NCBI GenBank assembly: GCA_041393775.1
Contig: JAWKJM010000007.1
Coordinates: 3,279-67,278, forward strand
Direction of reading: 5' to 3'
Origin: Candidatus Nanopelagicales bacterium
GTDB taxonomy: Bacteria; Actinomycetota; Actinomycetes; S36-B12; UBA10799
DNA: 64,000 bases
Each line of letters starts with the position of its first letter. Positions within the stretch are counted from its first letter, which is position 1. The notes beneath the pieces are model-generated. The model did no database searches and was not told the DNA's origin. It was given only the letters and a program-made list of their open reading frames with translations. The position numbers and the translations under genes were made by a program. This document shows, piece by piece, positions 6,058 to 60,217 of this stretch.

Positions 6058-6084
6058 GCATGCACCTTCGTCACAAAGGCGGTC
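6058..6084. repeat. Family B repeat, B1: isolated single arm
   Basis: GCATGCACCTTCGTCACAAAGGCGGTC. Confidence 0.6.
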
Positions 6085-6140
6085 GGATCTAGGCTGGGCC
6101 TTCAGCACCACCGGGGCTCCAGCGCCCGTCGGCCCAAATG

Positions 6141-6220
6141 GGCGAGGTTAGAGAACGTGCACGAGGTTAGAGAAGCCACGCGTGCGTTCTCTAACCTCGT
6201 GCACGTTCTCTAACCTCGCC
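6141..6220. repeat. Family A repeat, copy A1: minimal 80-bp near-perfect palindrome
   Basis: The arm GGCGAGGTTAGAGAACGTGCACGAGGTTAGAGAA (34 nt) is followed by the centre GCCACGCGTGCG and then the exact reverse complement of the arm. Confidence 0.95.
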
Positions 6221-6361
6221 GCAATGTCACGTTGGAGTCACCCCGGCGGTTTGGCCAGCGGTGCCCCAACCTCGCTCCCGTGGCTCTAATCAACTGCGGC
6301 CGGCGCGAGAGGTCGAGCCTGTTCCCATGGCGTGCCGCCCCGCGTCGGGGAGAATCGGGAC

Positions 6362-7771
6362 ATGGGCGACCCGGCCGCAGTGGTTCCCGATCCGCGACGA
6401 TGGCGCATCCTCGGGGTCACGCTGGTCGTGGGGTTCATGACGCTGCTCGACGTCACGATCGTGAACGTCGCGCTTCCCTCGATCCAGGAAGGCCTGGACG
6501 CCTCCGCCGGCGCGGTGCAGTGGGTGGTGTCGGGGTACGCGCTCACGTTCGGGCTCACGCTGGTGATCGGTGGTCGGCTCGGGGACGTCCTAGGTCGCCG
6601 CCGGATCATGTCGATCGGGCTCATCGGCTTCGTCCTCGGATCGGCCGCGGTCGGATTCGCTCCGACCGCTGAGGTCGCCGTTGCGGCTCGCCTGCTGCAG
6701 GGGGCGGCAGCCGGACTGCTCACGCCGCAGAACTCGGGTCTGATCCAGGAGCTGTTCACCGGCCCGGAAAGGGGCCGTGCCTTCGGCGCCTTCGGTTTCA
6801 TCGTCGGCGTCTCGTCCGCGATCGGGCCCGTCCTGGGTGGTCTGATCATCGCTGCTTTCGGGGCGGAGCACGGTTGGCGCTACATCTTCCTGATCAACGT
6901 GCCGATCGGGTTGGTCGCCCTGTTCTTCATCGTCCGGACGGTCCCTGGCCGCCGGGAGCCGCACAGAGATCAGCCGCTGGACCTCGACATCGGTGGGGCC
7001 GTCCTGCTCGGGCTTGCCGTGCTGGCGCTGCTGTATCCACTGATCGGGACCATCGGGCACTCGGAGTGGGTCTTCCTGCTCTACCTCTTGGTCCCCGTCC
7101 TGGCCTGGGCCTTCATCCGCAGGGAATTCACCGTCGCCGCGCGAGGTGGCGCCCCCTTGCTCGAGGTGGATCTGCTCCGGGGGACCCCGGGGTACGCGAG
7201 CGGACTCACGATCGGGCTCATCTACTTCACGGGCTTCACAGGAATGCTGCTGGTGATCAGTGTCTGCCTGCAGGAGCAGTTCGGGTTGTCACCCTTGACC
7301 GCCGGGCTGCTGGTCACACCATTCGCAGCGGGCTCGGCGGTGGCAGCGCCGGTGGCCGGGCGCATGGTCACAGGTGTCGGACGCCGCCTCACGGTGGGTG
7401 CTCTGACCGTGATGCTGGTCGGCACGGTGTTGCTGCTGATGGTCGTTCCAGCGCCCGGCTCGGCCAGGTGGGTTCCATTTGCCGTCGCGCTTCTCATAGC
7501 TGGTCTGGGTGGTGGGGCGGTGATCTCGCCGAACTTCACGCTCACGCTGGAGAACGTTCCCACCCGGATGGCCGGGGCCGCCGGTGGAGCGCTGCAGACC
7601 GGTCAGCGGATCGGGACTGCCATCGGAACCGCCCTGCTTGCCTCGGTCTACCGTGAGGCGCTGGACCGAGGGGCTTCCGCGCAACTGGCCCTGCGGATCT
7701 CCCTGGTGGTGGCTTTCGTGCTGCTGTCGGCCGCACTGTTCGTGGCGGTCCGTGACTCACGCAGCGACTGA
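6362..7771 (+). CDS. MFS transporter (DHA2/EmrB-like, ~14 TM)
   Basis: The ORF is hydrophobic throughout. N-terminus RRWRILGVTLVVGFMTLLDVTIVNVALPSI and motif GGRLGDVLGRRR are present. Start taken at ATG 6362 (MGDPAAV). Confidence 0.85.
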   Translation: MGDPAAVVPDPRRWRILGVTLVVGFMTLLDVTIVNVALPSIQEGLDASAGAVQWVVSGYALTFGLTLVIGGRLGDVLGRRRIMSIGLIGFVLGSAAVGFAPTAEVAVAARLLQGAAAGLLTPQNSGLIQELFTGPERGRAFGAFGFIVGVSSAIGPVLGGLIIAAFGAEHGWRYIFLINVPIGLVALFFIVRTVPGRREPHRDQPLDLDIGGAVLLGLAVLALLYPLIGTIGHSEWVFLLYLLVPVLAWAFIRREFTVAARGGAPLLEVDLLRGTPGYASGLTIGLIYFTGFTGMLLVISVCLQEQFGLSPLTAGLLVTPFAAGSAVAAPVAGRMVTGVGRRLTVGALTVMLVGTVLLLMVVPAPGSARWVPFAVALLIAGLGGGAVISPNFTLTLENVPTRMAGAAGGALQTGQRIGTAIGTALLASVYREALDRGASAQLALRISLVVAFVLLSAALFVAVRDSRSD

Positions 7772-7859
7772 GGCCGGCACGGGTCACCAGCACCGCCAAT
7801 AAGGGGAGTCCCCGACCATACCGACCTCTGATCGCGGGCTCCTCCGTCTCGGCCGGGGC

Positions 7860-8765
7860 CTACCCATGAACGGTCGGCAATGAACCCGGCCCCCCGGTGG
7901 GTCTCACGCGCGCGTCAGCGGCTGTCGCCGAGATTCGCCGTGTTGGTTCAACCTTGAAGGTCGTGGTTTCCTGGCGAGCCGGCTCTTCCGGCAGCGCCGT
8001 CGGGTGTTGAGATTCGGTGGGTGGCGATGCGAGGGTGCGAGCGACGGCCGCGATTGCACGCGGGTTGCTCGCCAAGCCGTTGTGGGATCCGCTGATCCGG
8101 ATGTGGCCCGCCCCGCGCTGCAAACTGTATCTCCAGTAGACGACCCCGTCGCCGAGCGAGACCACCGATGTCAGCGGAACGGCCGCGGGCAACGGCTCCG
8201 CGAGGGCGGCCTCGACGCGGCTGGCGCAGTCACCGCGCAAGCAGTCGTCGTCGAGCAGATTCGGGGAGTCCCTGCGAGCGAGCGCCTCGGCTATCCGCAG
8301 GACGTGCGTGCTGGCCCCGAACTGGTGGCTCAGCGGACTACCCAGAGTGATCACCTGGCTCACCAGTTCCGGATGGCGGGCGGCGACCAGGCGGGCGAGC
8401 GTGCCTCCCCTGCTGTGCCCGACGATGGCTACCGGTCCGGTCACCGATGCGATGTCGACCAGGCGCCGCTCAAGCAGCTCGATCATCTCGGTCGTGCAGC
8501 CGACGTTGGCGCGGATCCCGCTCGGGAACGTCCGGAACCCAAGCCGGCGCAGGTGCCGGGCCATCGGTCGAAGGGACCAGTCCCCGGCCATGAATCCGGG
8601 GACGAGCAGCACCGGCACGCCCGCCGGCGGTTGCTCGCGTGGCGACGGCGCGGACAGGACCACCCGCCACAAGGCCGCCCACTCGCGCATCGCCAGGAAC
8701 GGGCGCGGCGTCCAAGGGGGCAGGGCGTCGATCGAGCCCGCCGCTTTCGCGGTAGCCGTGTTCAT
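7860..8765 (-). CDS. alpha/beta hydrolase (lipase/esterase-like)
   Basis: 301-aa ORF. Nucleophile elbow VGHSRGG and upstream LLVPGFMAGDWS are present. An AAGGAG SD lies 6 nt upstream of the ATG at 8765. Confidence 0.75.
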   Translation of the reverse strand: MNTATAKAAGSIDALPPWTPRPFLAMREWAALWRVVLSAPSPREQPPAGVPVLLVPGFMAGDWSLRPMARHLRRLGFRTFPSGIRANVGCTTEMIELLERRLVDIASVTGPVAIVGHSRGGTLARLVAARHPELVSQVITLGSPLSHQFGASTHVLRIAEALARRDSPNLLDDDCLRGDCASRVEAALAEPLPAAVPLTSVVSLGDGVVYWRYSLQRGAGHIRISGSHNGLASNPRAIAAVARTLASPPTESQHPTALPEEPARQETTTFKVEPTRRISATAADARVRPTGGPGSLPTVHG

Positions 8766-9042
8766 CGTGGACTCCTTTCCGTGCTCGTGGGTCCAACACG
8801 ATGCACGAACTCTCCCCGCGTACTGCGCAACCCGTCGGTGCGGCGACCGTCGACCGTAGCCGGTGCGCAGACGTTGGTCACTGTACTTCCGTCCCCGGAC
8901 GCGAAGAAGGAGGAGTCGGTATGGTGAGGCCGCGCATTCGGGGTGGGGTTCTTATCTGGAGGTAAGACAAAGCAGGTCGTGCCGCCCACCACGATGTGTG
9001 ATGGGCGGCACGACGCCGGACAACCGGCAGCTTGAACTGCGG

Positions 9043-10125
9043 TCAGGCGGACGGGTCGATGAGGACCTTGGCGTCCGTCGGGTTGGTGCCGAGGCGGGCG
9101 AAGGCATCGGCGACGCCGTCGAATCCGACCCTGCCGGTGATGAGCTCGTTCGCCTGGAGCTCACCGGATGCCAGATGTTGCAGTGTCTCGGCGAACTCCT
9201 GCGGGGAGTAGTAGAGACTGAACCGGATGTCCAGCTCCTTCAGCACCCCGTGTGCCGGCTCGATGGTGTCGGGGTCCAGGTTGATCCCTGCCACCGAGAT
9301 GCGCGAGCCCGCCGGGGCCCCCGCGATCATCTGCTGCAGCAGCCCGGGTGCGCCAGTGCACTCGAAGCCCACCGTCGGACGCAGGGGGAGTTGCCCGAAC
9401 ACCGCCGTTGGAGCGGCCATCCGCGCAGGGTCGTCGGTGGCCGCTGCCTGCATCCAGGCGGCGTACGGCGACTCCACAGCCGGGTCGACGACTACGTCGG
9501 CTCCCATCCGCTTGGCGAAGTCCCGACGCTCCTTCGACAGGTCGGCCGCGACGATCGGGCCGACTCCGCGCATCTTGAGCACGGCGATCACCGCCAGGCC
9601 GATCGGGCCGCAACCCATCACCAGCGGGACGTCGTCCCCCTCGGTGTCCACCCGGTTCACCGAGCGCAGCGCAACGGCCATCGGCTCGGTGAGTGCCGCG
9701 ATGTCGGTCGGCAGTTCGTCCGGAACCGGGATCAGCAGCGCCTCGGACAGAATCATCCGCTCTGCGTAGGCGCCCGGCGTGTCGGTGCCGCCGAAGCCGA
9801 TGAGTACCGGCTGCTGGCGCAGCAGCATCGGCATCGCGACCACGCGGGTGCCGACAGGGATCTGCTGCTGGGTCTCCGGTCCGTAGGACTCGACCTCGGC
9901 CACGTACTCATGTCCGAAGACGATCGGGCTGTTGAGGTCGATCATGTCGACGCCCAGCAGCGCCTGCGAGGCCCTGTTGAAGCCGTCACCGTGGGTGGCG
10001 CAGCTCTTGTCCGAGCCGCAGATGCCCGCGGCCAAAACCTTCACCACGACCTCCCCCGGGCCCGCGACGGGCTCGGGGATCTCCTGGACGCCGAGCGTGC
10101 CGTCCTGGAGGACGACCGCCCTCAC
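9043..10125 (-). CDS. Zn-dependent alcohol dehydrogenase (MDR family)
   Basis: Motifs MRAVVLQDG...PGEVVVKVLAAGICGSD and GHEYVAEV are present. The GTG start overlaps the stop of the upstream cupin gene (GTGA). Confidence 0.85.
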   Translation of the reverse strand: MRAVVLQDGTLGVQEIPEPVAGPGEVVVKVLAAGICGSDKSCATHGDGFNRASQALLGVDMIDLNSPIVFGHEYVAEVESYGPETQQQIPVGTRVVAMPMLLRQQPVLIGFGGTDTPGAYAERMILSEALLIPVPDELPTDIAALTEPMAVALRSVNRVDTEGDDVPLVMGCGPIGLAVIAVLKMRGVGPIVAADLSKERRDFAKRMGADVVVDPAVESPYAAWMQAAATDDPARMAAPTAVFGQLPLRPTVGFECTGAPGLLQQMIAGAPAGSRISVAGINLDPDTIEPAHGVLKELDIRFSLYYSPQEFAETLQHLASGELQANELITGRVGFDGVADAFARLGTNPTDAKVLIDPSA

Positions 10126-10685: not shown

Positions 10686-10809
10686 CTTGAAGTCCTTCTT
10701 GGGGTTCGTTGAACTGGAAGTTGATCGATGCCCGGCGGGGCAGTCATGCGATGCGGGGTGATCATCTCCGCAACGCCTCTGATGTTGTCAGCGCCCGGGC
10801 AGTGAAGTC

Positions 10810-10847
10810 TTGACACTTCTGGACATCTGTTTGACACTTCGGGACAT
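10810..10847 (+). promoter_or_regulatory. 17-bp direct repeat pair with 21-bp period (candidate AraC-family operator)
   Basis: TTGACACTTCTGGACAT (10810-10826) and TTGACACTTCGGGACAT (10831-10847) differ at 1 position and are separated by a 4-bp spacer. The second copy overlaps the regulator's ATG. Confidence 0.5.
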
Positions 10848-11892: not shown

Positions 11893-11921
11893 TAGACGCG
11901 CCTGGGTGTAGTCGGGCTTGC

Positions 11922-12218: not shown

Positions 12219-12324
12219 GTCGTCTCCTCTCCGACTGCCCCCGGTTGAACAAACTACCACTGATCGGCCGTGAATGCTCGAACGCGTGTTCGAGGGAGGT
12301 TCGGATCGAGATCCGGGTGGCCGT

Positions 12325-12412
12325 GCCTTTGTCACGAAGTAGCGGGGGCCGGAAGGCGTGTCGCACGCACCTTCAGTACAGAACCCCGTGTGAACGGGCA
12401 ACTTCATCACAC
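12325..12412. repeat. Family B repeat, B2 (three arms)
   Basis: Arms CTTTGTCACGAAGTAGCG, CGCACCTTCAGTACA and CAACTTCATCACA. Confidence 0.8.
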
Positions 12413-12586
12413 TGACCAGGAAGCATCATGACTCGTCCGCCCGCACCTTCGGCATTCGGTCGCTTTCGCGCCCGTCCTCGCGTGCCCCGTGCTCCGACGG
12501 CGGGAGATGAAACCCGCGACGACCACAGACACCGTTTCCCGATGATGCGATGGCAGTGAGTCTTCTACCGGTCTGGCCACCGGGTG

Positions 12587-13243: not shown

Positions 13244-13527
13244 TTGTCCAGCCTGGCACAGTCCGGTCGCTCCCGGACGGCCACGGGACGGCGCCTGTCC
13301 CCGGCTTTCACACAGACTTTGGGCGGATTCGGTCACGTACTGACCGGATTTGACCAAAGTCCCCCAAGGGAGACTCGAGGGCGAGCGTTCCACACCCTCC
13401 GGGTCCGCAGTCGCGGTGTCCCGTGGCAGCCATGCTCGGTCAGCACAAATCGAGCCTGCGAAGGACGGCGTGGGTTCGGTAGACTCGAACCGGCGGTGGA
13501 GGGCAAGGAGGTCCGTCCATCAAGGTA

Positions 13528-14272: not shown

Positions 14273-15211
14273 ATGAGGATCGACTGCTGGGTCTTCGTGA
14301 CCGAACACAGAGGTTGGGGCGGCATGCTGGCCGCCGTTCGCGGTCTGGGTGCCCGGCTCACGGCGGTCGTGGTAGGCCCGGACGACCTGGCCCGTGCGGT
14401 GGCGGCGACAGGACCCGACGAACTCCGCTGGGTCGGGCCCGGGGACGAAGTCCCCGCGGAGGCATTCGCGCCCGCGCTTGCTGCGGCAGCCGAACTCGCC
14501 CACCCCCGTGTCCTGGTGAGTACCACCGACCCGGCTGCCCGTGTCTTGCTGGGGGCCGCGTGCGCGCGACTCGGATCCGCCCTGATTCCCGGGATGATCG
14601 GTCTGGCGGCTGAAGGGGACGAGGTGGTCGTCCGGCGCTCGGCCATCGGCGGGGAGGTCATCGAGAGCTATGCGGCGGGTGGCTCGATAGCAGCGGTCTT
14701 CGTCGGTGACGACGTCGAGACCGTCACGAGCAACGCTATCGCGGCGACGACCAATGACCTGCCCGCCGCGGATATCTCGGTCGTGCGCGGGGCGTCCAGC
14801 GTGGTCGCCACCGGCGTGAACGACGCACCGCGAGTGGTGGCCTTCGGGCGCGGCGTGAAAGCAAGGAGCGACGTGGCGCTGATCGAGCAGTTGGCTGCGG
14901 CGCTCGACGCCGAGATCGCCTGTTCGATGCCCATCGCCGAGGACGTGCACTGGCTGGACAAGGCCCGGTACATCGGTCGTTCCGGTCAGCACATCGCCCC
15001 TCAGCTCTACCTCGCCGTCGGAATCGCGGGTTCTCCCCAGCACATGGAAGGCGTGCGCGACGCCAAGATCGTGGCCGCCATCAACATCGACCCCGGCGCG
15101 CCGGTCTTCCGGGTCGCCGACTACGGCGTGGTCGGTGACCTGTACGAAGTGGTCCCCGCCATCGTCGAAGAACTCGAGCACGGACAACCGTCAGGAGGAA
15201 GTCATGAGTGA
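14273..15211 (+). CDS. fixB: electron transfer flavoprotein alpha subunit (FixB/EtfA)
   Basis: The C-terminal FAD-binding signature PQLYLAVGIAGSPQHMEGVRDAKIVAAINIDPGAPVF is present. Confidence 0.85.
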   Translation: MRIDCWVFVTEHRGWGGMLAAVRGLGARLTAVVVGPDDLARAVAATGPDELRWVGPGDEVPAEAFAPALAAAAELAHPRVLVSTTDPAARVLLGAACARLGSALIPGMIGLAAEGDEVVVRRSAIGGEVIESYAAGGSIAAVFVGDDVETVTSNAIAATTNDLPAADISVVRGASSVVATGVNDAPRVVAFGRGVKARSDVALIEQLAAALDAEIACSMPIAEDVHWLDKARYIGRSGQHIAPQLYLAVGIAGSPQHMEGVRDAKIVAAINIDPGAPVFRVADYGVVGDLYEVVPAIVEELEHGQPSGGSHE

Positions 15212-16673
15212 ACAATTCGATGCCCAGTACGACGTCGTGGTGATCGGTGGTGGCGGTTCCGGGTTGTCCGCCGCTGTGCAGGCGGCCAAGGACGGTCTGA
15301 CCTGCGCGGTCCTGGAGAAGGAGGCCAAGACTGGAGGTAGTTCTTCGTTCGCGGAGGGCCATGCCGCTTTCGAGTCGGACGAACAGAGCAAGCGGGGGAT
15401 CGAGGTCACCAAGGACCAGGCTTTCAACACCTATCTCGAGTACTCCCACTGGCGAGCCGATCCCGCGATCGTCTCGCGCTTCGTGGAGAACGCCGCGACC
15501 ACGATCCAGAAACTGCGCGACGAGCACGGTGTCGTCTATGAAGATGTCACCATCACGGCGCCCGACCAGCCCGGTGAACTCGTCACGTGGCACCTGCCCG
15601 AGGGCGAGGTAGCACGAGTGATCGAGTTGCTGGAGGCCGACGCCCGCCAGCGCGGGGTCGACGTGTTCATGCAGACCTCCGCCACGGGAATCCTGCAGGG
15701 TGAGGGCGGGAAGGTCACCGGCGTGGTCGCGAAGGACAGCGACGGCCAAGAGGTCCGGTTGGGCGCGAAGGCTGTGGTAGTCGCCACCGGGGGCTTTGCC
15801 GGCAACCCGGACATGCTGGACAAGTACACCCGCTACGGCATCGGCAAGAAACTCATCAACATCGGGGGTCCGGGCAACACCGGCGACGGTGTCAGGATGA
15901 TCCTGGAGGCCGGCGGGGTGGAGAATGCCTCGATCGGGACGCTGCTGCTTTTCCCGCTGATGCGTGACAAGGCGATCACCAGCCACACGAACGCGGCCGG
16001 GTTCCAGCCCTACTTCTGGGTCAACGCGGACGGCAAGCGGTTCACCAACGAGGTCGTCGGACTCAATTTCGGCCATGCCGGTGACCTAGAGGCGCGACAG
16101 CCCGGCGCCTTCTTCTGGTGCATTCTCGACCAGGCGCAGATCCGCCACCTCGTCGAGGACGGCAACGAGGTCGGTCTGGGGATCTACGTCCGTAACCACG
16201 AGAAGATGGTCAGGCTCCCCGCCGAACTTGAGGAGGACGTCGCCGCGCGCCGAGAGGACGTCGTCAAGGGCGACACCATCGAGGAGCTCGCCGGGAAGAT
16301 GGGCGTCGAGCCGGCCGTTCTGGGGGCGGAGGTTGATGCGTACAACGCGTTGTGCGGCCAAGGTGTGGATACGCGTTTCCATAAGCCGGCGAAGTACCTG
16401 TTCGCGGTCGAGGAGGGCCCGTTCTTCGCCATCAGGATGGAGACCGGGATCATGATCACGATGGGGGCGATGAAGATCGATGACCGGATGCGTTGCCTCG
16501 ACGAGAACCGCAATCCCATCCCCGGGCTTTACGCAGTCGGGTGCGATGCAGGTGGTCTGTGGGGCGAGTCTTACAGCCTGACCGTGCCTGGAACCGGCAA
16601 CGGCTTCGCACTTACATCCGGTTGGCTGGCCGCGGACGAGATCGCGGAACAGATCAAGGCCGGCTCCCTGTAG
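15204..16673 (+). CDS. soluble FAD-dependent oxidoreductase, fumarate-reductase/KstD-like flavoprotein family
   Basis: Rossmann motif YDVVVIGGGGSGLSAAVQAAKDG. An AGGAGGA SD lies at 15193-15199. ATG 15204 overlaps the fixB stop by 8 nt. Confidence 0.8.
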   Translation: MSEQFDAQYDVVVIGGGGSGLSAAVQAAKDGLTCAVLEKEAKTGGSSSFAEGHAAFESDEQSKRGIEVTKDQAFNTYLEYSHWRADPAIVSRFVENAATTIQKLRDEHGVVYEDVTITAPDQPGELVTWHLPEGEVARVIELLEADARQRGVDVFMQTSATGILQGEGGKVTGVVAKDSDGQEVRLGAKAVVVATGGFAGNPDMLDKYTRYGIGKKLINIGGPGNTGDGVRMILEAGGVENASIGTLLLFPLMRDKAITSHTNAAGFQPYFWVNADGKRFTNEVVGLNFGHAGDLEARQPGAFFWCILDQAQIRHLVEDGNEVGLGIYVRNHEKMVRLPAELEEDVAARREDVVKGDTIEELAGKMGVEPAVLGAEVDAYNALCGQGVDTRFHKPAKYLFAVEEGPFFAIRMETGIMITMGAMKIDDRMRCLDENRNPIPGLYAVGCDAGGLWGESYSLTVPGTGNGFALTSGWLAADEIAEQIKAGSL

Positions 16674-16693
16674 TCGTGCTGTTGAGTGAACAG

Positions 16694-16822
16694 GGCGGTC
16701 TTTGTGACAAAGGTGCGTGCCTGCCCGGAGAGTGTGTCACGAAGTTGCGGGGTGGAGGCACCTGGCGACCCGCACCTTCGTCACAGACCGCCCTGCGCAG
16801 CCTCAACTTCGTCACAGACGCC
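16694..16822. repeat. Family B repeat, B3 (four arms, interleaved complementarity)
   Basis: Arms TTTGTGACAAAGGTGCG, TGTGTCACGAAGTTGCG, CGCACCTTCGTCACA and CAACTTCGTCACA. It lies between the FRD-like flavoprotein gene and fixC. Confidence 0.9.
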
Positions 16823-16935
16823 CCGGGCCGGCCCACTGCCGACGGGTCGCGACCTCCCGGGGCCCGGCCGGTCCCAACCTCAGATCATGAACCCGTCTGG
16901 AAACGGGTAATGCCAAACGGACGGGCGCGCATGCC

Positions 16936-18645: not shown

Positions 18646-18998
18646 GGCAAGAAAGTCTAGGGCGAGAACGGCTCGTGTACTCGGTCGCGGTAGAAGTGGG
18701 CTCTAGTCCGAAAATGGTTGGTGTACTCGGTCGCCGCAGAAGTGGGCCGCGGGGTTAGAGATTGGTCGCGAGGTTAGAGATTGTGCACGAGGTTAGTGAA
18801 TGCACGTGTGGCTTCTCTAACGTCGTGCACGTTCTCTAACGCGAGCGGTTTCGCCAGGCATCTTCCCGCCTGAACCATGGCCCGGGACGACTAACGCGAG
18901 CGGTTTCGCCAGGCATCTTCCCGCCTGAACCATGGCCCGGGACGACTAACGCGAGCGGTTTCCGCTCGGCATCTTCCCGCCTGCACGCCACTGCCGCG
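18646..18998 (-). repeat. Family A repeat, copy A2: 2 T-units + core + 3 S-units
   Basis: T-units lie at 18646-18741. The core with 5 copies of the 13-mer lies at 18743-18830. S-units lie at 18831-18998. Confidence 0.9.
18831..18940. repeat. Perfect 2 x 55-bp tandem duplication (S-units) inside A2
   Basis: GCGAGCGGTTTCGCCAGGCATCTTCCCGCCTGAACCATGGCCCGGGACGACTAAC occurs twice with no mismatch. A diverged third unit follows. Confidence 0.95.
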
Positions 18999-23792: not shown

Positions 23793-24082
23793 AGGTCGTG
23801 TACTTGGTGGCCGCAGGATTTGGCGGTTCTCTAGTCCGAAAATGGCTCGTGTGCTCGGTCGCCGCAGAAGTTGGCCGCGAGGTTAGAGAATGGTCGCGAG
23901 GTTAGAGATCGTGCACGAGGTTAGTGAACGCACGTGTGGCTTCTCTAACCTCGTGCACGTTCTCTAACCCGAGCGATCTCCGCCCGGCATTTCCCCGCAT
24001 GAACGCCGCGGCCGGCCACGGCCATGGACCACTAACGCCAGCGATCTCCGCCCGGCATTTTTCCGCTTGAACCGGCCGCCCA
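23793..24082 (-). repeat. Family A repeat, copy A3
   Basis: One partial and one full T-unit, a core at 23879-23968, and 1.5 S-units of the 68-bp variant. Confidence 0.9.
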
Positions 24083-26636: not shown

Positions 26637-26764
26637 GGCGGTCTTTGTGACGAAGGTGCGTGGATGTCCCGGGCTTCGTGACGAAGTCGCGGGGTCTGAA
26701 GGCCGTGGAGCCCCCAACTTCGTAACAGACCGCCCTGTGGACCCTCAACGTCGTCACAAACGCC
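26637..26764. repeat. Family B repeat, B4
   Basis: Arms TTTGTGACGAAGGTGCG, TTCGTGACGAAGTCGCG, CAACTTCGTAACA and CAACGTCGTCACA. Flanked by GGCGGTC/GACCGCC. Confidence 0.9.
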
Positions 26765-28841: not shown

Positions 28842-28906
28842 GTGAAGAACCTAGGAGGCTTCACGGCACTTGTCAACTTGTTGGACCAGTAGTGCCACCG
28901 CGTCTT

Positions 28907-28960
28907 CGACTTTGGTCGGATGTGGTCACCCAATGACCGGATGTGACCAAGGTCCCCGTG
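28907..28960. promoter_or_regulatory. Four-half-site GGTCA/TGACC palindrome, copy 1 (candidate GntR operator)
   Basis: CGACTTTGGTCGGATGTGGTCACCCAATGACCGGATGTGACCAAGGTCCCCGTG. The half-sites are phased at exactly 10 bp. It lies in the divergent gap between the GntR gene and the beta-lactamase-family operon. Confidence 0.55.
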
Positions 28961-29174
28961 GTTGCGCCTGGGTGTCCCGCGCGTTCCGGGTGGCACAATC
29001 CAGAAGGCCGTCGGACAGCGCCCTGGGGCGGTGGTCGACGAGTGGATCCGTGACTCCCACGTTGATAACGTCGAACCTGGGTCTTCCCAAACCGAGCGCA
29101 GACGGCGTGACTGGAGGGACGGTCAGCCGGATCGCCTCCCCGGATGCACGTCGGGGAAGGAAGCCGTGAGGTCT

Positions 29175-31665: not shown

Positions 31666-32003
31666 TCATCCAAGGCCGCGGCCGTTCGGCGGGAAGATGC
31701 CGGCCCGGGATCGCTCGCGTTGGTCATCCATGGCCGTGGCCGGCCCCCTTTCAGGCGGGGAAATGCCGGGCGAAATCGCTCGGGTTAGAGAACGTGCACG
31801 AGGTTAGAGAAGCCACACGTGCGTTCACTAACCTGGTGCACATTCTCTAACCTCGCGGCCAACTCCTGCCGCTACCGAGTACACCAGCCATTTTCGGACC
31901 AGAGAGGGTGCACGAGGTTGGAGAAGTCACACGTGCGTTATCTAACCTCGCGGCCCACTTCTGCGGCGACCGAGCGCACGAGTCGATTTCGGACTGGCTC
32001 GGC
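31661..32003 (+). repeat. Family A repeat, copy A4: 2 S-units + core + T-unit + second partial core + T-unit
   Basis: It starts with GTTAGTCATCC directly at the truncation point of the MDR remnant. Six 13-mer copies are present. Confidence 0.9.
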
Positions 32004-34689: not shown

Positions 34690-34703
34690 CCCGGGGTTCA
34701 CAG

Positions 34704-34757
34704 CGACTTTGGTCAGATCTGGTCACCCACTGACCATATGTGACCAAAGTCCCCGTC
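34704..34757. promoter_or_regulatory. Four-half-site GGTCA/TGACC palindrome, copy 2
   Basis: CGACTTTGGTCAGATCTGGTCACCCACTGACCATATGTGACCAAAGTCCCCGTC. It is about 88% identical to copy 1 and lies 54 bp upstream of the metallopeptidase start. Confidence 0.55.
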
Positions 34758-39091: not shown

Positions 39092-39748
39092 ATGGACACT
39101 CAGGACCAAACCTACGCAGCACGGCTGGACATCGACTACCCGGAGAAACTCGATCGCGTATCCAGCGTCTTCCGCTTCATATGGATCATCCCGATCGCGA
39201 TAGTGATCGCCGCGCTGATGTCCAACGCCACGTCGACGTGGACAGTCGTCAACGAGTCCGGCGACACCGTGTCTCAGGTGACTCAAACCGGCGGTGGGAT
39301 CGTTGGGGGGCTGTTCGCGGCCACCCTGCTCATGATCCTGTTCCGGCAGCGCTATCCGCGCTGGTGGTTCGACTTCGCCCGGGAGTTGTACCGGTTCTCG
39401 ACGCGGGTGGGCGCCTACGCGGCGTTGGTCACCGATCAGTACCCGTCCACTGAGGACGAGCAGGCCGTCCACCTGGAACTGGACTACCCCGACGCCAAGC
39501 AGGACCTCAACCGATGGCTGCCGCTGGTGAAGTGGTTCCTGGCCATCCCGCACTACTTCGTCCTCTTCTTCCTGGGGATCGCCGCGTTGTTCTCCGTTGT
39601 GATCGCCTGGTTCGCCATCCTGTTCACCGGTAGGTACCCGAAGGGTCTCTTCGACTTCGTGGTGGGTGTGATGCGCTGGAGCCTGCGCGTCCAGGCCTAC
39701 GTCGGACTGCTCCTGACCGACAAGTACCCGCCATTCAGCCTGCGGTAG
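39092..39748 (+). CDS. DUF4389-like membrane protein
   Basis: Duplicated motif RYPRWWFDF / RYPKGLFDF, with IPHYFVLFFLGIAALF. An AGGAGG SD is present. Confidence 0.75.
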   Translation: MDTQDQTYAARLDIDYPEKLDRVSSVFRFIWIIPIAIVIAALMSNATSTWTVVNESGDTVSQVTQTGGGIVGGLFAATLLMILFRQRYPRWWFDFARELYRFSTRVGAYAALVTDQYPSTEDEQAVHLELDYPDAKQDLNRWLPLVKWFLAIPHYFVLFFLGIAALFSVVIAWFAILFTGRYPKGLFDFVVGVMRWSLRVQAYVGLLLTDKYPPFSLR

Positions 39749-39817: not shown

Positions 39818-39945
39818 GGCGGCCTTTGTGACGATGTTGCGGCGCTGTCGGGCCGGGTTGTAACGAAGGTGCGCGCTCAGACCGACCTGCGGGGCCATCT
39901 TCGTAGCAAACCGCCTGGTGGGCTCGCAACTTCGTCACAAGAAGG
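39818..39945. repeat. Family B repeat, B5
   Basis: Arms TTTGTGACGATGTTGCG, TTGTAACGAAGGTGCG, CCATCTTCGTAGCA and CGCAACTTCGTCACA. Confidence 0.9.
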
Positions 39946-43249: not shown

Positions 43250-43385
43250 GCCACGATTGTGACGAAGCTGGCGGCCGCGCCCGTGTCGTGTTACGAAGGT
43301 GCGGGGTCTGGCCGGTCGCGACCGCGCACCTTCGCAACAATCCAGGGTTGGGCCCCGCAGCTTCGTCACACAAGGTGCGCGCGGG
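43250..43385. repeat. Family B repeat, B6 (nested complementarity)
   Basis: Arms ATTGTGACGAAGCTG, TGTTACGAAGGTGCG, CGCACCTTCGCAACA and CAGCTTCGTCACA. Confidence 0.9.
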
Positions 43386-44340: not shown

Positions 44341-44575
44341 GGTTCGTGTGCTGCGGAGTTGGCTGTTCTCTAGTCCGAAGATGGCTGGTGCACTCGGTCG
44401 CCGCAGAAGTGGGCCGCGAGGTTAGAGAATGGTCGCGAGGTTAGAGAACGTGCACGAGGTTAGTGAACGCACGTGTGGCTTCTCTAACCTCGTGCACGTT
44501 CTCTAACGCGAGCGATTTCCGCCCGGCATTTTCCCGCCTGAACGGGTGGCCGGCCACGGCCCGGGACGGCCACCT
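44341..44575 (-). repeat. Family A repeat, copy A5
   Basis: Partial and full T-units, a core at 44417-44508, and one S-unit. Confidence 0.9.
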
Positions 44576-46444: not shown

Positions 46445-46686
46445 GCATCCGCGTCCGGGGCCGATCGCGGCGTTCAGGAGGGAGAATGCCGGGCGGAAAC
46501 CGCTCGGGTTAGAGATCGTGCACGAGGTTAGAGAAGCCACACGTGCGTTCTCTAACCTCGTGCACGATCTCTAACCTCGCGACCATTCTCTAACCTCGCA
46601 GCCCACTTCTGCGGCGACCGAGTACACGAGCCATGATCTCTAACCTCGCGGCCAACTCCCGTGGCCACCGAGGACACGAGCCATCG
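46445..46686 (+). repeat. Family A repeat, copy A6
   Basis: One S-unit and a core. Four TCTCTAACCTCG copies lie on the right side, followed by two T-like units. Confidence 0.9.
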
Positions 46687-48301: not shown

Positions 48302-48438
48302 GGGCGGCGTCCGGTGTCTTTGTCACGAAGGTGCGCCGTCCAGATGGTGGTTTGTGACGAAGGTGCTGGGTCCACCGGGCGTTGCGCCCGCACCTTCGAT
48401 ACAAAAGGCCCGGCGCCGCCCGCACCTTCGTAACACAG
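48302..48438. repeat. Family B repeat, B7
   Basis: Arms TTTGTCACGAAGGTGCG, TTTGTGACGAAGGTGC, CGCACCTTCGATACA and CGCACCTTCGTAACA. Confidence 0.9.
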
Positions 48439-54180: not shown

Positions 54181-54362
54181 GAGTGGCTCCCTGATTGGTA
54201 AGGCATACCTACGCAGTTATGCTGCGTCCACCCCGGGGATCTGTCTACGGCCCGATGGTGCCGGATCCGCGACACCCCGGCAGGACCGCCATTTGATTGG
54301 CGTGTCGGGCGGATCGACGACAGGTGTGACCCGCCCGATAGTGTCGGTCGCAGGGAGGGAAC

Positions 54363-55052: not shown

Positions 55053-55065
55053 GCCCCCCGCGCGG

Positions 55066-55140
55066 CCACGATTGTGACGACGTCGGCGCCCGTCCTGGCG
55101 CTGTGCTACGGGTTTGGCCCCCGCGACTCTGTCACACGAG
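55066..55140. repeat. Family B repeat, B8 (shortened/degenerate)
   Basis: Arms ATTGTGACGACGTCG, TGTGCTACGGGTTTG and CGACTCTGTCACA. It shares its left flank GCCACGATTGTGACGA with B6. Confidence 0.75.
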
Positions 55141-55185
55141 GGCGACCCCGCAAGGCGTTGTCATCACACGTCCCCGGGGCCGTAG

Positions 55186-56604
55186 TCACGGCGTCCGAAG
55201 CGGTAGCACGGCATGCCCCGCACCCTCACCGGCGACAGCGAGCACCTCGTCGAAACCCTCGCGCATGCAGTCCATCATCTCGTCGGGGTCGGGCACGGCG
55301 CCGGTGTCGATGTTGTAGCTGACGTAGCACCTGCCGCAGTAGGACATCAAAGTGATGTTCAGGGCCGCGCCGATCGTGGGGCCGAATCCGTAGAAGTGCG
55401 TGACCCTCGCGCCGGTGAGGTACAGGGGAACCGGCAGCCCCGGCACATTGCTGGCCAGGAAGTCGATGTGCTTGAGCATGCCTCCGATGTAGGCACGCGG
55501 GAACAGGTTGAGGGTGCCGGCGATCGCGTTGGTGAACGGCAGCGATCGGTCGTGCTTCACCGCCTCGGTGCGGCGGTGGGTCTGCGCCATGCGCTCTCGG
55601 GGGTCGGGGATGCCGGCCGGGAGTTTGAAGCGCATGAGGGTGATGCGGTTGCCGCCGATGGGGTCGTCGCTCTTGCGGATGCTGACCGGCATGGTCACCC
55701 GCAACTCATCGACTTCGGACCCGTGGCGTTCATGATAGATACGCAGTCCGGCGGTGACGGCGGACAGGAAAGCGTCGTTGTGGGTCGCATCCGCGGCGTG
55801 CGCGGCGAGCAGGAAGTCCGCGAGCTGGAATTCGAGTACGTCGTAGTGCCACCCCAGATGCCGCTCGGTCATCACGGGCGAGAGCGTGTCGGACACCGGT
55901 TCCACGAACTTGGCGATCGACTGACCGGTCGCCAGCGTTTCGGAGACCACCTTGCGGGGGTGACGCAGTGCCTGTGCGACATCTCCAGCCGCGGACGTCA
56001 CCCGGCGCTTGGAGAAGTCGTACAGCCGTGACCAGTTGTGGCCTAGTGCGTCCCGGGCAAGGTCCAGGGCACCCAGCGTCTCGCCTTGGGGCGCCTCCGG
56101 CATGGGTCCCAGATCCCCCGGATCCGGTTCGGTGTCGAACAGCAACCGGGCTATGTCCATGCCTCCCACGCCGTCAGTCAACGAATGATGCAGTTTCATG
56201 ACCAGGGCCGACTGCCCGTCCTCCAGGCCCTCGATGAGGGTGAACTCCCACAGCGGTCGGTCGCGGTCGAACCCGGCCATTCCGGTCTTGCGGGCGAACT
56301 CCAGCACCGACGCCAGTGTCTTCGGCTCGGCCGCTTCGAAACGCCGCATGTGCCACGTCAGATCGAAATCCGGATCGACGACCCATCGCGGCGTGGCAAG
56401 GCGCAAAGGCGGGATCACGACCCGGTGCCGGAAGCCGGGTGTCTGCCTGGTGCTGCGTTCAAGGCGTTCCGGCAGGGCCTCCCAGTCGGGGCTGCCGTCG
56501 AGGAGCAAAACCACCACGACCGTCGATCGCAGCAGCGGGTCCTCCTCCATGTACCAGGAGAAAGCGTCCGTGTCCTTCATGTGGACTTCGACTCGGTCAT
56601 TCAT
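55186..56604 (-). CDS. wax ester synthase/diacylglycerol acyltransferase (WS/DGAT)
   Basis: Active-site motif HHSLTDGVGG. A GGAGGTG SD precedes ATG 56604. Confidence 0.85.
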   Translation of the reverse strand: MNDRVEVHMKDTDAFSWYMEEDPLLRSTVVVVLLLDGSPDWEALPERLERSTRQTPGFRHRVVIPPLRLATPRWVVDPDFDLTWHMRRFEAAEPKTLASVLEFARKTGMAGFDRDRPLWEFTLIEGLEDGQSALVMKLHHSLTDGVGGMDIARLLFDTEPDPGDLGPMPEAPQGETLGALDLARDALGHNWSRLYDFSKRRVTSAAGDVAQALRHPRKVVSETLATGQSIAKFVEPVSDTLSPVMTERHLGWHYDVLEFQLADFLLAAHAADATHNDAFLSAVTAGLRIYHERHGSEVDELRVTMPVSIRKSDDPIGGNRITLMRFKLPAGIPDPRERMAQTHRRTEAVKHDRSLPFTNAIAGTLNLFPRAYIGGMLKHIDFLASNVPGLPVPLYLTGARVTHFYGFGPTIGAALNITLMSYCGRCYVSYNIDTGAVPDPDEMMDCMREGFDEVLAVAGEGAGHAVLPLRTP

Positions 56605-56762
56605 GGCGAACACCTCCATTGTCGACGCTGCCCCTCGGGGGAGAGGCTTGTCAACCCGGGCGGTCCACGGGGGCCGAAGCGGCCCACGGTGCGTCAGGTT
56701 GCGCCTGTTCGTGTGCCCCGGGTAGACGTCCGCACCGGGTTCGGTCGAACCCCCGGCGAAGG

Positions 56763-56882
56763 TCAGTGTGACGAAGTTGATGGCCGTCCGATCGTCGTGT
56801 TACGAAGGTGCGCGGTCTGAGCCGGTGCGACCGCGCACCTTCGTAACAATCCGGGCTGGCGCCCCGCAACTTCTTCACAGAG
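56763..56882. repeat. Family B repeat, B9 (nested complementarity)
   Basis: Arms GTGTGACGAAGTTG, TGTTACGAAGGTGCG, CGCACCTTCGTAACA and CAACTTCTTCACA. Confidence 0.9.
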
Positions 56883-56910
56883 GGTCGGACGGGACATCAG
56901 TGCGGAATCC

Positions 56911-58614
56911 TCACGTGCGCTTCTTCTTGTGCCGGGGCTTGCGTTGACCGCCCTGGACGGACAACTCAATCAGCTTCCCGGAGATCCGGGTCTTGCGAAG
57001 CCGCGACCAGGTATCGGCCGGCAACTCAGCTGGCAGTTCCACCAGAGAATGGTCGCCGCGGATGTCGATGTGGCCGAAGTCCTGCCGGTTCAGTCCACCC
57101 TCGTTGGCCAGAGCCCCGACGATCTGCCGCGGTTCGACCTTCTGGCGGCGTCCGACGTTTATCCGGTAGGTCGCCATGGGGACGTCGGTGCGCCCGCGCG
57201 GTCGGCGGGGTGATTGCGCCTCACCGCGCGGCGAGACCCGGTCGGAACGGGACGAGCGCTGAGGCGGTCGCTCCGGCTCGGGGTCCAACAGGAGCGGAGT
57301 GCCACCCTGCAGGATCACCGCCAAGGCCGCGGCGACGTCCCCCTCGGCAACGTCGTTCTCTCGCACGTAGTGCCCCACGACGTCCCGGAAGAATCCCACT
57401 TCGTCGGAACCCAGCGCCTGCGTGATCGAGTCGTCGAAACGGGCCAGCCGGGTGCTGTTGATGTCTTCGGCGGTCGGCAACTGCATCGCGGTCAGCGGTT
57501 GCCGGGTCGCCTTCTCGATGGCCTTGAGCAGGTATCGTTCCCGCGGGGTCACGAACGAGATCGCCTCGCCGCTGCGCCCCGCGCGCCCGGTACGGCCGAT
57601 GCGGTGGACATACGACTCGGTATCGGTGGGGATGTCGAAGTTGACGACGTGGCTGATCCGGTCGACATCGAGGCCACGGGCCGCCACGTCCGTGGCCACC
57701 AGGATGTCGAGTTCCCCTGACTTGAGTTGGTTCACCGTGCGTTCGCGCTGCACCTGCGGGACGTCGCCGTTGATGGCCCTCGCGGAGAAGCCGCGAGCGC
57801 GCAACTTCTCCGCGAGGGTCTCCGTCTCGTTCTTCGTGCGGACGAACACGATCATGCCCTCGAAGTTCTCGACCTCCAGAATGCGTGTCAGTGCATCGAC
57901 CTTCTGCGGGTACGAGACCACGAGATAGCGCTGGGTGGTGTTTGCCGAGGTCGTGGTCTTGTTCGTGACCGTGATCTCAGCCGGGTCGTTGAGGTACTTC
58001 TTGGACAGGCGCCGGATCGGAGCCGGCATGGTTGCCGAGAACAGGGCCACCTGCTTGTCTGCGGGCGTTTCGGCCAGGATGGTCTCGACATCATCCGCGA
58101 AGCCCATGTTGAGCATCTCGTCGGCCTCATCGAGCACCAGAAACCGCAGTTCCGACAGATCGAGAGTCCCCTTGTCCAGGTGATCCATGATCCGCCCCGG
58201 TGTGCCGACCACGACGTGCACGCCCCGCCGCAGAGCGCTGAGTTGGACCCCGTATCCCTGGCCGCCGTACACGGGCAGCAGTCTGACGCCGTGCATCCGG
58301 GCGGCATAGCGCTCGAACGCTTCGGACACCTGCAGTGCGAGTTCGCGGGTCGGCGCCAGCACCAGAGCTTGGGGATTCCGCTGGGCCAACGTCAGCCGAT
58401 CCAGAATGGGTAGGGCGAAGGCCGCGGTCTTCCCGGTTCCGGTCTGGGCCAGCCCGACCACATCGCGGCCGTCCAGAAGCAGCGGGATGGTGGCCGCTTG
58501 GATTGGTGATGGTGTTTCATAGCCGACTTCGTTCAGCGTCCTCAAGAGAGCATCGCTGAGCCCCAAGTCGATGAATGCTGGAACCGGCTGCTCGGTCTGC
58601 TCGTCGTGGGTCAC
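56911..58614 (-). CDS. deaD: DEAD-box ATP-dependent RNA helicase with C-terminal RNA-binding extension
   Basis: Motifs AQTGTGKT, VLDEADEML, SAT and HRIGRTGRAG are present. The tail is basic. Confidence 0.9.
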   Translation of the reverse strand: MTHDEQTEQPVPAFIDLGLSDALLRTLNEVGYETPSPIQAATIPLLLDGRDVVGLAQTGTGKTAAFALPILDRLTLAQRNPQALVLAPTRELALQVSEAFERYAARMHGVRLLPVYGGQGYGVQLSALRRGVHVVVGTPGRIMDHLDKGTLDLSELRFLVLDEADEMLNMGFADDVETILAETPADKQVALFSATMPAPIRRLSKKYLNDPAEITVTNKTTTSANTTQRYLVVSYPQKVDALTRILEVENFEGMIVFVRTKNETETLAEKLRARGFSARAINGDVPQVQRERTVNQLKSGELDILVATDVAARGLDVDRISHVVNFDIPTDTESYVHRIGRTGRAGRSGEAISFVTPRERYLLKAIEKATRQPLTAMQLPTAEDINSTRLARFDDSITQALGSDEVGFFRDVVGHYVRENDVAEGDVAAALAVILQGGTPLLLDPEPERPPQRSSRSDRVSPRGEAQSPRRPRGRTDVPMATYRINVGRRQKVEPRQIVGALANEGGLNRQDFGHIDIRGDHSLVELPAELPADTWSRLRKTRISGKLIELSVQGGQRKPRHKKKRT

Positions 58615-58735
58615 AGGATGCCTCTCTGGTCGGTGCCTGGATCGAGGGGCGATCTGGCGCGGCGACCCCGGCGCGGCGCTGCTCGAGCGTCCTCTCGACC
58701 CTACTCTCCGGCCTGGTCGGTCGTCCCACGCGTCG

Positions 58736-59980
58736 TCAGCCGGATCCTGCCTGGACGAGTGCGGCGAGGGGTGTGTGCAGATCGGCCAGGGCTTGGAGGT
58801 CGACCTCCCGGCCGGACTCCACCAGTGCCTTGATGTCGTCGATCACGTCCCAGATGTTGACCGCCATGCCGGCCAGCACACGGCCCTGCCCCACCCAGAA
58901 TGCAACGAACTCGCCGCTGTCCGGGTCACCCCGGAAGACCACTTGGTCGTATCCTCCGGGCTCGACATGACCCGCGTACTCCATTCCGAGGTCGTACTGA
59001 TCGGTGTAGAAGTAGGGAGTCCGGTCGTAGACCGCCTCGATGCCGAGCATGGACCGGGCAGCCACCGTCGGCTGGTTGAGCGCATTCGCCCAGTGCTCCA
59101 CCCGGATGCGCTTGTTCAGTCGGGGGTGGAACGCGCTGGCGACGTCACCGGCGGCGAAGATGTCCGGGTCGGATGTCCGGAGGTGCTCGTCGACCACGAT
59201 GCCGTTGTCCACCGGGAGACCGGCCGACTCGGCCAGTTGCACGTTCGGGGTGATGCCTACGCCGATCAGCACGAGGTCCGCGGGGATGATGCTGTTGTCG
59301 GAGAGGCGCACACCGGTCACCGTGCCGTTCTCGCCGACCAGTTCCGCCACATTGACACCCAGGCGCAGGTCCACGCCGTTGCGGGTGTGTAGATCGGCGA
59401 ACACCTGCGCGACCTCGTCGCCCAGCACCCGCTGCAGGGGCAAGTCCGCCGACTCCAGGACTGTGACATCGACACCTGCGTGGCGGGCGGCCGCGGCTAC
59501 TTCCAGACCGATCCAGCCGCCGCCGATGATAGCGACGCGCCCGCCGCGTTCCAAGGCTGCGCGAATGCGCTCACTGTCTGGCAGCCGGCGCAGGTACGCG
59601 ATCCCGTCGAGGTCACTTCCGGGGATGGCCAGGGTCCGTGGTGATGAGCCGGTGGCCAGGAGTAGTTTGTCGTACCCGACGCGGGCGCCACCGGACAACA
59701 CAACCTCGTGGGCGGCACGATCGATGGCGGAGGCCGTGGCCCCCAGCCGCAGGTCCACGTTGTGCTCGGAGTACCAGTCATCATTGTGGACGAAGACCTT
59801 CTCGCGTTCGCTCTCCCCGCGGAGGAACTCCTTGGACAGCGGCGGTCTCTCGTAGGGTCGGTCTGCCTCGTCGCCGATGAGCGTGATCGCTGCGTCGAAC
59901 CCCTCCGCGCGCAGCGCCTCAGCCGCCTTTGCACCGGCGAGGCCGGCTCCCACGATGACCATGCGCGACGGGTTGCTCAT
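58736..59980 (-). CDS. FAD/NAD(P)-dependent ferredoxin reductase-like oxidoreductase
   Basis: Motifs MVIVGAGLAGAKAAE, VAIIGGGWIGLEVAA and FAAGDVA are present. A GAGGAG SD precedes ATG 59980. Confidence 0.8.
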   Translation of the reverse strand: MSNPSRMVIVGAGLAGAKAAEALRAEGFDAAITLIGDEADRPYERPPLSKEFLRGESEREKVFVHNDDWYSEHNVDLRLGATASAIDRAAHEVVLSGGARVGYDKLLLATGSSPRTLAIPGSDLDGIAYLRRLPDSERIRAALERGGRVAIIGGGWIGLEVAAAARHAGVDVTVLESADLPLQRVLGDEVAQVFADLHTRNGVDLRLGVNVAELVGENGTVTGVRLSDNSIIPADLVLIGVGITPNVQLAESAGLPVDNGIVVDEHLRTSDPDIFAAGDVASAFHPRLNKRIRVEHWANALNQPTVAARSMLGIEAVYDRTPYFYTDQYDLGMEYAGHVEPGGYDQVVFRGDPDSGEFVAFWVGQGRVLAGMAVNIWDVIDDIKALVESGREVDLQALADLHTPLAALVQAGSG

Positions 59981-60102
59981 TCTCACGACTCCTCGATTGG
60001 TCCAGAGGTTGATGGTTTCACGGGTCGGCTGTCCGCGCCACGGTCGCCCGGCGTTGATGTCCGAACGACTGGGGTCCGTCCCCTCGAGCCGCACGAAGCC
60101 CG

Positions 60103-60217
60103 GTGTGACGACGTTGTGGGGGTCCGGACCGGACTGTTACGAAGGTGCGGGGTCGCGCCGGCTCGGACCACCCACCTTCGTAACGCGACGGAGTAGTGGC
60201 AAGCACCTTCGTCACAA
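60103..60217. repeat. Family B repeat, B10
   Basis: Arms GTGTGACGACGTTG, TGTTACGAAGGTGCG, CCACCTTCGTAACG and GCACCTTCGTCACA. Confidence 0.9.

Follow-up and report, generated by a model that had tools for sequence, protein, structure and literature searches.

Family B, a four-arm palindromic repeat past gene ends in an uncultured actinobacterium, possibly a REPIN-like mobile element

The stretch of DNA analysed here, called the window, comprises 64,000 nucleotides (64 kb) of contig JAWKJM010000007.1 from a Candidatus Nanopelagicales bacterium (assembly GCA_041393775.1). Its genes are those of ordinary metabolism. Between them stand the copies of a palindromic repeat, here called family B, in which two forward copies of a short, 15-nt arm are followed by two reverse copies (orientation ++--). 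Family B is a real, previously unnamed palindromic repeat family, and its arm motif, taken as a string, is absent from any relevant paper in the searchable literature.

Copies of family B in the window

Matches to the arm TGTGACGAAGGTGCG with three or fewer mismatches (<=3) number 36 in the window against 3.2 expected, and 0/100 shuffles reach 36. A covariance model of the family was built from 29 copies, and the window was searched with it on both strands. At E<=1e-16 the matches, on both strands, are exactly the seven complete ++-- copies (Table 1); weak matches were obtained at two places only, both of them degenerate copies. The ten copies counted in the first-pass annotation of this DNA are thus an overstatement, as they resolve into seven complete copies, two degenerate ones (B2 and B8) and one lone arm (B1), for which neither partner arms nor a model match was found. 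The spacers, given there as 15-25 nt, do lie within that span, and the measured range is narrower (16-17, 21 and 16-18 nt for the three in order). The GGCGGTC...GACCGCC flank pair reported for B3, B4 and B5 is present in the sequence and is a trait of one subfamily.

B8 is a copy from which the inner hairpin has gone. Its first 53 nt on the left can be aligned to the left end of the copy at 43258 (repeat family D11), its right end corresponds to the section of the same copy that holds spacer-34 and arm 4, and the intervening ~50 nt are absent; on this alignment B8 derives from a 43258-type subfamily by internal deletion of the inner hairpin.

Table 1. Positions in the window of family B elements, family B remnants and family A cores
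Feature	Class	Coordinates	Arms	Model match	Context
B1	lone reverse arm, not an element	6061-6075 (-)	single match, 1 mismatch		abuts family-A element at 6120-6243
B2	degenerate copy	12320-12456	arms 2, 3 and 4 plus one stray reverse arm, no arm 1; pattern +--- at offsets 0, 36, 67, 112	12320-12421; 21.4 bits, E 0.003	
B3	complete four-arm element	16703-16816	16703-16717(+), 16735-16749(+), 16771-16785(-), 16802-16816(-)	16693-16826; 91 bits, E 2e-20	29 nt past stop of + gene 15135-16673; next + gene 119 nt downstream
B4	complete four-arm element	26646-26758	starts 26646, 26677, 26713, 26744	90.8 bits	flanked by two - strand genes
B5	complete four-arm element	39827-39939	starts 39827, 39859, 39894, 39925	90.1 bits	between convergent genes; 78 nt past stop of 39092-39748
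B6	complete four-arm element	43258-43370	starts 43258, 43289, 43325, 43356	91.9 bits	between convergent genes
B7	complete four-arm element	48321-48435	starts 48321, 48353, 48389, 48421	96.3 bits	flanked by two - strand genes
B8	deletion derivative	55063-55178	inner hairpin gone	55063-55178; 20.1 bits, E 0.006	
B9	complete four-arm element	56767-56879	starts 56767, 56798, 56834, 56865	98.2 bits	31 nt past stop of DeaD helicase gene 56911-58614(-)
B10	complete four-arm element	60104-60216	starts 60104, 60135, 60171, 60202	88.7 bits	between two - strand genes; 92 nt after end of 60309-60788
Family A	core	6143-6199			
Family A	core	18769-18825			
Family A	core	23897-23953			
Family A	core	31780-31836			
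Family A	core	31894-31950			
Family A	core	44436-44492			
Family A	core	46504-46560			
Family A	core	62150-62206			

Architecture of the unit

Anatomy was read from an alignment of 29 distinct copies of family B, which also served for the covariation tests described below. The geometry is fixed: the arms start at offsets 0, 31/32, 67/68 and 98-100, and the unit measures ~115 bp from arm end to arm end or ~130 bp with its short palindromic extensions. Its left half consists of a short extension (ggcctT), the outer arm, a 17-nt spacer, the inner arm and GGGT; ~13 variable nt in the centre are followed by ACCC and the inner arm', a 17-nt spacer, the outer arm' and AAGgc. The distance from inner arm to inner arm' is ~21 nt. 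Each forward arm is preceded by TTT and each reverse arm trailed by AAA (AAAG), and palindromic homology continues for ~7 nt past the outer TGT/ACA ends.

Outer and inner arms carry different consensus sequences. The outer consensus, TGTGACGaaGtTGcg, has a fixed G at position 4, variable positions 8-9 and mostly T at position 11; the inner consensus, TGTnACGAAGGTGCG, leaves position 4 free, has no variation at positions 8-9 and carries G at position 11. As inner and outer arms are distinct sites, the element is mirror-symmetric. Exactly one outer arm has the variant centre GACG[A/T/G][T/C]GTTG in 17/29 copies, with two or three mismatches to its partner arm; the right outer arm of B4 is of the variant type GACGACGTTG. 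Conservation is specific to the arms, mean identity between copies being 85% for arms versus 47% for the variable parts. A CRP-like site was considered on account of the half-site TGTGA and was rejected, the second half-site being missing.

Copying and persistence

Unlinked copies share their spacers and loop, and therefore the whole unit is copied. In one metagenome-assembled genome (MAG), the variable parts of three copies on different contigs (L002, L078a and L078b) are 78-85% identical; in the window, the copies at 43258 and 56767, which belong to one subfamily, are 70% identical in their variable parts, the median of all pairs being 47%. The unit is also duplicated in tandem. Two copies stand at a 146-nt period, flank included, in L085 (1562-1852) and one copy in L095 (5424-5573), on contigs whose aligned stretches are 99.9-100% identical; the difference would reflect either a recent duplication or an assembly collapse. 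A second tandem pair, with a period of 156 nt, was found in L089.

Persistence was assessed at three syntenic loci of ~85% nt identity (L038, L089 and L088), in all of which both element sites are filled. In pairwise comparison of the two sites in the three genomes, the arms are identical at 334/360 positions (93%), spacers plus loop at 198/330 (60%) and the 35-nt flanks at 33%. The excess of arm over spacer conservation is also present in copies that lie outside the selection made by the search pattern (L038 site A and L088 site B). The loops of two neighbouring L088 copies (809-923 and 1836-1950) are identical at 19/21 positions, and the orthologues in L038 and L089 differ, which suggests short-patch conversion with the arms as anchors. 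Direct repeats of 3-9 nt at the borders of 27 copies, tested at 13 x 13 boundary offsets, did not rise above permuted controls, and a target-site duplication is thus missing.

Pairing and folding

Single copies fold stably (z-scores of -2.4 to -8.6 for the ten copies folded), and a clean nested fold was obtained for 6/10 of them. B5 (39827) is nested as RNA with a z-score of -7.1. The minimum-energy folds of 16703 (B3) and of 48321 (B7) pair arm 1 with arm 3; in B7, arm 1 and its flank are paired to arm 3 and a spacer.

In the first-pass annotation, two arm-pairing topologies had been distinguished, interleaved in B3 and nested in B6 and B9. At the level of these copies the bases had been read correctly: position 11 of B3 matches between arms 1 and 3 and between arms 2 and 4, and the arm-specific bases of B6 and B9 match 1:4 and 2:3. 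On 29 copies no real dichotomy is left, since column composition explains both pairings. Nested pairing leaves 82.4% of cells paired compared with 81.7% in column-composition shuffles, 92/500 of which are as high, and interleaved pairing leaves 78.6% of cells paired, with 46/500 shuffles as high. The covariation test of nested versus interleaved pairing decided for neither, the scores of both being no higher than those of the shuffles. Variable positions are unpaired in 13-17 of the 29 copies, spacers are complementary at 51.5% with shuffles doing equally well, and in the RNAalifold consensus the inner stem alone is retained, with a covariation term of +0.05. Since one extended consensus is common to all four arms, each forward arm pairs with either reverse arm, and pairability is a by-product of four near-identical arms; the nested value lies slightly above the interleaved one because outer and inner arms differ, and the nested signal of B6 and B9 equals this family-wide difference, not a topology. 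Similarity from unit to unit is the same within a copy as between copies, and this, together with the composition shuffles, rules out two topologies as a feature of the family.

When the 10-nt 5' extensions were compared with gaps tolerated, units of one copy weakly resembled each other in the interleaved sense (units 1-3, p=0.01 uncorrected; units 2-4, p=0.05; nested pairs not significant). Given the relatedness of the copies, which inflates this signal, and the total of six tests, it is not robust and is not relied on. That family B keeps its arms as sequence and not as pairing, with no single conserved RNA fold, fits the evidence. The earlier suggestion of protein-recognised arms in place of one RNA fold agrees with the missing covariation of arms and spacers and with the 93% identity of orthologous arms against 60% of spacers.

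Position relative to genes and transcript ends

Genomic context was taken from our own rough gene calls, on which all full copies are intergenic. The 29 copies occupy 11 convergent, 16 co-directional and at most 2 divergent regions; so few divergent regions have p ~0.01 in a hand binomial calculation that assumes a quarter of intergenic regions to be divergent. Copies begin 10-150 nt past the upstream stop codon, and 27/29 lie downstream of the 3' end of a gene. Placement 3' of genes or between convergent genes, as first described, is borne out by these counts, and the same 27 copies fit an intergenic multi-copy palindrome of the repetitive extragenic palindromic (REP)/REPIN kind.

The terminator role proposed for the element fared less well, as the defining U-tract is missing: none was found at family B elements, and a terminator scan places no terminator there. 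Canonical terminators are not in excess in this genome (8 found versus 8.1 expected). The asymmetric outer arm (GACG[A/T/G][T/C]GTTG) shows no bias relative to transcription, being proximal in 2 cases and distal in 3.

Distribution among genomes

Other carriers were sought in a one-genome-per-species scan with a pattern of the inner hairpin and in a metagenome scan with a stricter pattern. The same four-arm element was found by the former in two other actinobacterial MAGs, HK-STAS-ACTI-17 (seven loci) and MFD00905.bin.1.260 (two loci); in metagenomes, 18 stretches matched the stricter pattern and 13/18 contain full four-arm copies. The remaining matches of the one-genome-per-species scan, which have the same 11-mer, are unrelated; those in Streptomyces, Kitasatospora, Glutamicibacter and Bifidobacterium resemble terminators, each with just one hairpin, owe their detection to the pattern and were rejected as members. 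Viral contigs, plasmids and phages yielded no family B match. Rfam gave nothing at gathering thresholds over the whole window, and under relaxed conditions merely generic long-hairpin (microRNA precursor) matches far under threshold.

The DeaD helicase of the window has its nearest named relatives in Nocardioides (76-80% amino acid (aa) identity), and by this protein the window genome is closer to the relatives L097-L099 (88% aa) than to locus L044 of the HK-STAS MAG (80%). Those relatives contain no family B copy in the 36-49 kb sampled, nine further DeaD loci contain none either, and ~6.5 kb of the window's own genome (L100) contain neither a family B element nor a transposase. In the HK-STAS MAG an element is present at L044:4128-4242, 20 nt past the DeaD stop. 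The region between DeaD and the WS/DGAT gene measures 291 nt including B9 in the window (56620-56910) versus 92 nt in L098 (4768-4859). Family B is thus patchy and lineage-restricted, in a few uncultured actinobacteria. As a marker it cleanly identifies a group of such bacteria from sludge, soil and water, and its copies are a likely cause of assembly breaks.

As a separate observation on the DeaD-to-WS/DGAT region, its promoter-proximal part (CCCGGGTTGACA...GGGGCAGCGTC) is kept between the window and the relatives of 88% aa identity.

Other repeats

A second repeat of the window, family A, likewise has a 2+2 layout, with GAGGTTAGAGAA twice forward and then twice reverse at ~20-nt spacing (cores in Table 1). 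Among the loci examined its motif is confined to contigs of this genome (L100 and L101), apart from one isolated match, with 1 mismatch, in a MAG that is unrelated (L054); neither the other genomes with family B nor the relatives L097-L099 contain it. Three repeats of ~190 nt (18688-18877, 23816-24005 and 44355-44544) are 81-94% identical and hold a family-A core between modules D8 and D9; they look like a larger composite element. At 18836-18945 there is an exact 55-nt tandem duplication.

A palindrome of ~47 bp, GACTTTGGTCrGATnTGGTCAC..TGACCrkATkTGACCAArGTC, is present in three copies (13300-13364, 28893-28957 and 34690-34754). Its arms face inwards, and the outer one, TGTGACCAAAGTC, is similar to the arm of family B. 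Two of the copies lie just upstream of the gene starts at 28962 and 34805, and these palindromes may be operator sites of a regulator. L098 (1492-1634) and L097 (~8290-8440), both from relatives without family B, share a conserved double palindrome, CCTCCAACTTCGCGC...GCGGGCAGTTGGAGG, present at a single locus; it lies upstream of a ferredoxin-reductase-like gene, where the window has B10. Because it contains GGAGG/CCTCC, it may be a 5'-leader structure.

Through a weak tblastn match a genuine Y1_Tnp gene was found among REP hairpins in an Acidimicrobiaceae MAG (L075). The gene (3958-4935, minus strand) encodes a 325-aa RAYT-type protein (Pfam E 5e-10) and is flanked by arrays of REP hairpins at 1-360 and 5000-5300 with the stem GACTAACGAAGGTGCGGCCCC; judged by these features it is a clear REP-RAYT locus in Actinomycetota. 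As a partner of family B this gene, the only Y1 transposase encountered, was rejected, because it shares just the 11-12 nt core demanded by the search pattern and belongs to another class with an unrelated REP family. Homologues of its Y1 protein were likewise set aside, as they form a broad family (~50% identity) that is not linked to genomes in which the arms occur.

Interpretation

The observations are best accounted for by family B as a REPIN-like, non-autonomous palindromic repeat that is mobilised in trans and has protein-recognised arms, a reading that we put at about even chances. On this reading the whole unit would be copied to new intergenic sites, mostly 20-150 nt past stop codons, by a process that depends on a trans-acting protein, the putative enzyme, which would recognise the 15-20 nt arm sequence. 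Recognition would probably take place on the hairpin formed by the inverted arms in a single-stranded DNA intermediate, as it does for RAYT with REPINs. Settled copies would persist for long with arms intact and spacers not, and transcription across the element from either side would give an RNA with the same long hairpin, which may mark or protect 3' ends. From the missing covariation and the position-specific difference between inner and outer arms it follows that the sequence is recognised and not just the pairing. The missing target-site duplication is as expected for HUH-type insertion, and the patchy distribution with genome-specific four-arm families is turnover typical of repeat families.

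Several points weigh against this. No RAYT or other transposase was found beside arms in the window or in ~330 kb from arm-bearing genomes. Compensatory hairpin changes, unlike in REPINs, were not detected in family B, and the layout is 2+2 arms versus 1+1 in REPINs. Comparison of filled with empty sites (against L097-L099) gave no clean pair, as the intergenic DNA is unalignable, and the boundaries were not set by it. Finally, an arm identity of 93% at orthologous sites that have stayed fixed speaks for constraint acting on the single site or for conversion, and selection for replication alone fails to explain such arm conservation.

It is because fixed-site arm conservation exceeds what selection for replication alone gives that a host cis-element stays viable, as a possible if rather unlikely explanation. 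Each copy would then be a four-site module bound by a host protein, on double-stranded DNA or on the double-stranded RNA stem, and would be kept by selection site by site as a factor-dependent, direction-independent transcript-end signal or insulator at the 3' ends of genes. Such a module would account for the gradient from arms (93%) through spacers (60%) to flanks (33%), for the strict 31/32-bp arm spacing of about three helical turns, for the missing covariation (sequence being kept, not pairing), for a palindromic layout that is identical when read either way and for the position of 27/29 copies past a stop codon with <=2 in divergent regions; canonical terminators not being in excess (8 versus 8.1 expected) agrees with it, and there is a precedent in TRIT, for whose motif a factor was proposed (PMC3152330). 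Set against this is the distribution, in which the closest sampled relatives (DeaD 88% aa) lack the family and a more distant lineage (80%) has it, which is odd for core regulation. Moreover, spacer-sharing subfamilies at unlinked loci show proliferation by copying, copies stand at widely varying distances (10-150 nt) past the stop codon, several unrelated families of the same architecture coexist in one genome, and no candidate binding protein was identified. That the arms have been domesticated as genome-wide four-site modules, selected at each gene end and read by a dedicated host protein, is a doubtful proposition; if true, it would mean a factor-dependent termination, 3'-end or insulator system built from a repeat family in a lineage without canonical terminators.

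A miniature inverted-repeat transposable element (MITE) of a DDE transposon, with two transposase-binding sites per end and the outer arms as TG...CA termini, is improbable in our judgement. Multi-site ends and TG/CA termini are typical of inverted repeat/direct repeat (IR/DR) Tc1-type, IS21, Tn7, Mu and Tn402 transposons, and family B has the ++-- layout, 5'-TGT...ACA-3' ends that face outwards as terminal inverted repeats, distinct outer and inner consensus sequences, a fixed 31/32-bp phasing that would set the sites on one helix face, and copying of the whole unit. Yet no target-site duplication of 3-9 bp stands out from permuted controls at any boundary offset, and TGT/ACA are not the termini because palindromic homology runs ~7 nt further. 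In the DNA examined no isolated ++ or -- arm pairs were found around a gene, no transposase was seen and there was no plasmid, phage or viral match; old orthologous sites with conserved arms are also unexpected for decaying MITEs. Least credible of all is a structured RNA gene or cis-RNA with a conserved nested or pseudoknotted fold as its functional unit: single copies do fold stably (z-scores of -2.4 to -8.6) and the predicted consensus fold includes the inner stem, but the covariation term is ~0, variable positions are unpaired in 13-17/29 copies, spacers pair like shuffles, both strands score alike, Rfam offers just generic long-hairpin matches far under threshold, and the asymmetric outer arm has no consistent orientation to transcription.

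To return to the REPIN-like reading, much work has been done on REP/REPIN-type repeats in Proteobacteria and hardly any in Actinobacteria. What is unusual here is that the 2+2 layout is fixed and its inner sites are distinct from its outer ones, and that the arms are almost unchanged at corresponding gene ends in genomes too far diverged for their neutral DNA to be aligned. Family B could show whether such repeats persist through copying by a partner enzyme or through use by the host, for example in ending or protecting transcripts in GC-rich bacteria without ordinary terminators.

Comparison with known systems

Intrinsic terminators differ from family B in their adjoining U-tract, which its arms lack. 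Folded attC sites of integrons have outer and inner protein-binding boxes with an unpaired centre between them, a variable loop cap and conserved mismatches; their boxes are of 7-8 bp and stand in cassette arrays beside an integrase, whereas the arms of family B are of 15-20 nt and its copies are scattered among housekeeping genes. At the ends of IR/DR transposons (Tc1/Sleeping Beauty) and of IS21, Tn7, Mu and Tn402 there are two direct sites per inverted end and TG...CA termini. The likeness to family B lies in its paired direct sites, the slight difference between outer and inner sites and the fixed spacing; the differences are its length of ~115 bp, the lack of a target-site duplication, homology past the TGT ends and the fact that no autonomous partner was found. 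BIMEs of E. coli are likewise intergenic and composite, with one REP motif repeated in either orientation and linkers of fixed length at the 3' ends of genes, but their units alternate +-+-, vary in number and are joined by linkers that have been given names, in contrast to the fixed ++-- of family B.

Closer by host is TRIT ('Tuberculosis Rho-independent terminator'), of which 147 palindromic, bidirectional, sequence-conserved copies at gene ends have been described, reported only in Mycobacterium, with a motif-binding factor proposed by the authors (PMC3152330). Family B is likewise an actinobacterial bidirectional palindrome, conserved in sequence, with many copies near gene ends in one lineage. 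By its description TRIT is a single hairpin at about -8 (~-8) from the stop codon, whereas family B has four arms 10-150 nt past the stop and occurs in a Nocardioides-related lineage, not in Mycobacterium.

REPINs are REP doublets that form hairpins, with spacers less conserved than the motifs and kept in length; tandem arrays that take in the flanks, derivatives made by deletion and a lack of target duplication are on record for them, as are persistence over long times and the presence in one genome of several families, each specific to a lineage, and compensatory hairpin changes are common (PMC3116915). It was in Escherichia and Pseudomonas that RAYT groups 2 and 3, those associated with REPs, were characterised (PMC5581495). 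Family B departs from this pattern in having four motif copies (two direct and two inverted) in place of two, with inner and outer sites that differ, and in its host, an actinobacterium, REPIN/RAYT having been described in Pseudomonas and Enterobacteria. It shares with REPINs the extragenic position, the many copies, the inverted conserved motif, the length-kept spacer and the predicted hairpin, as well as tandem arrays with flanks, deletion of the inner hairpin, several families per genome, persistence over long times and the lack of a target duplication.

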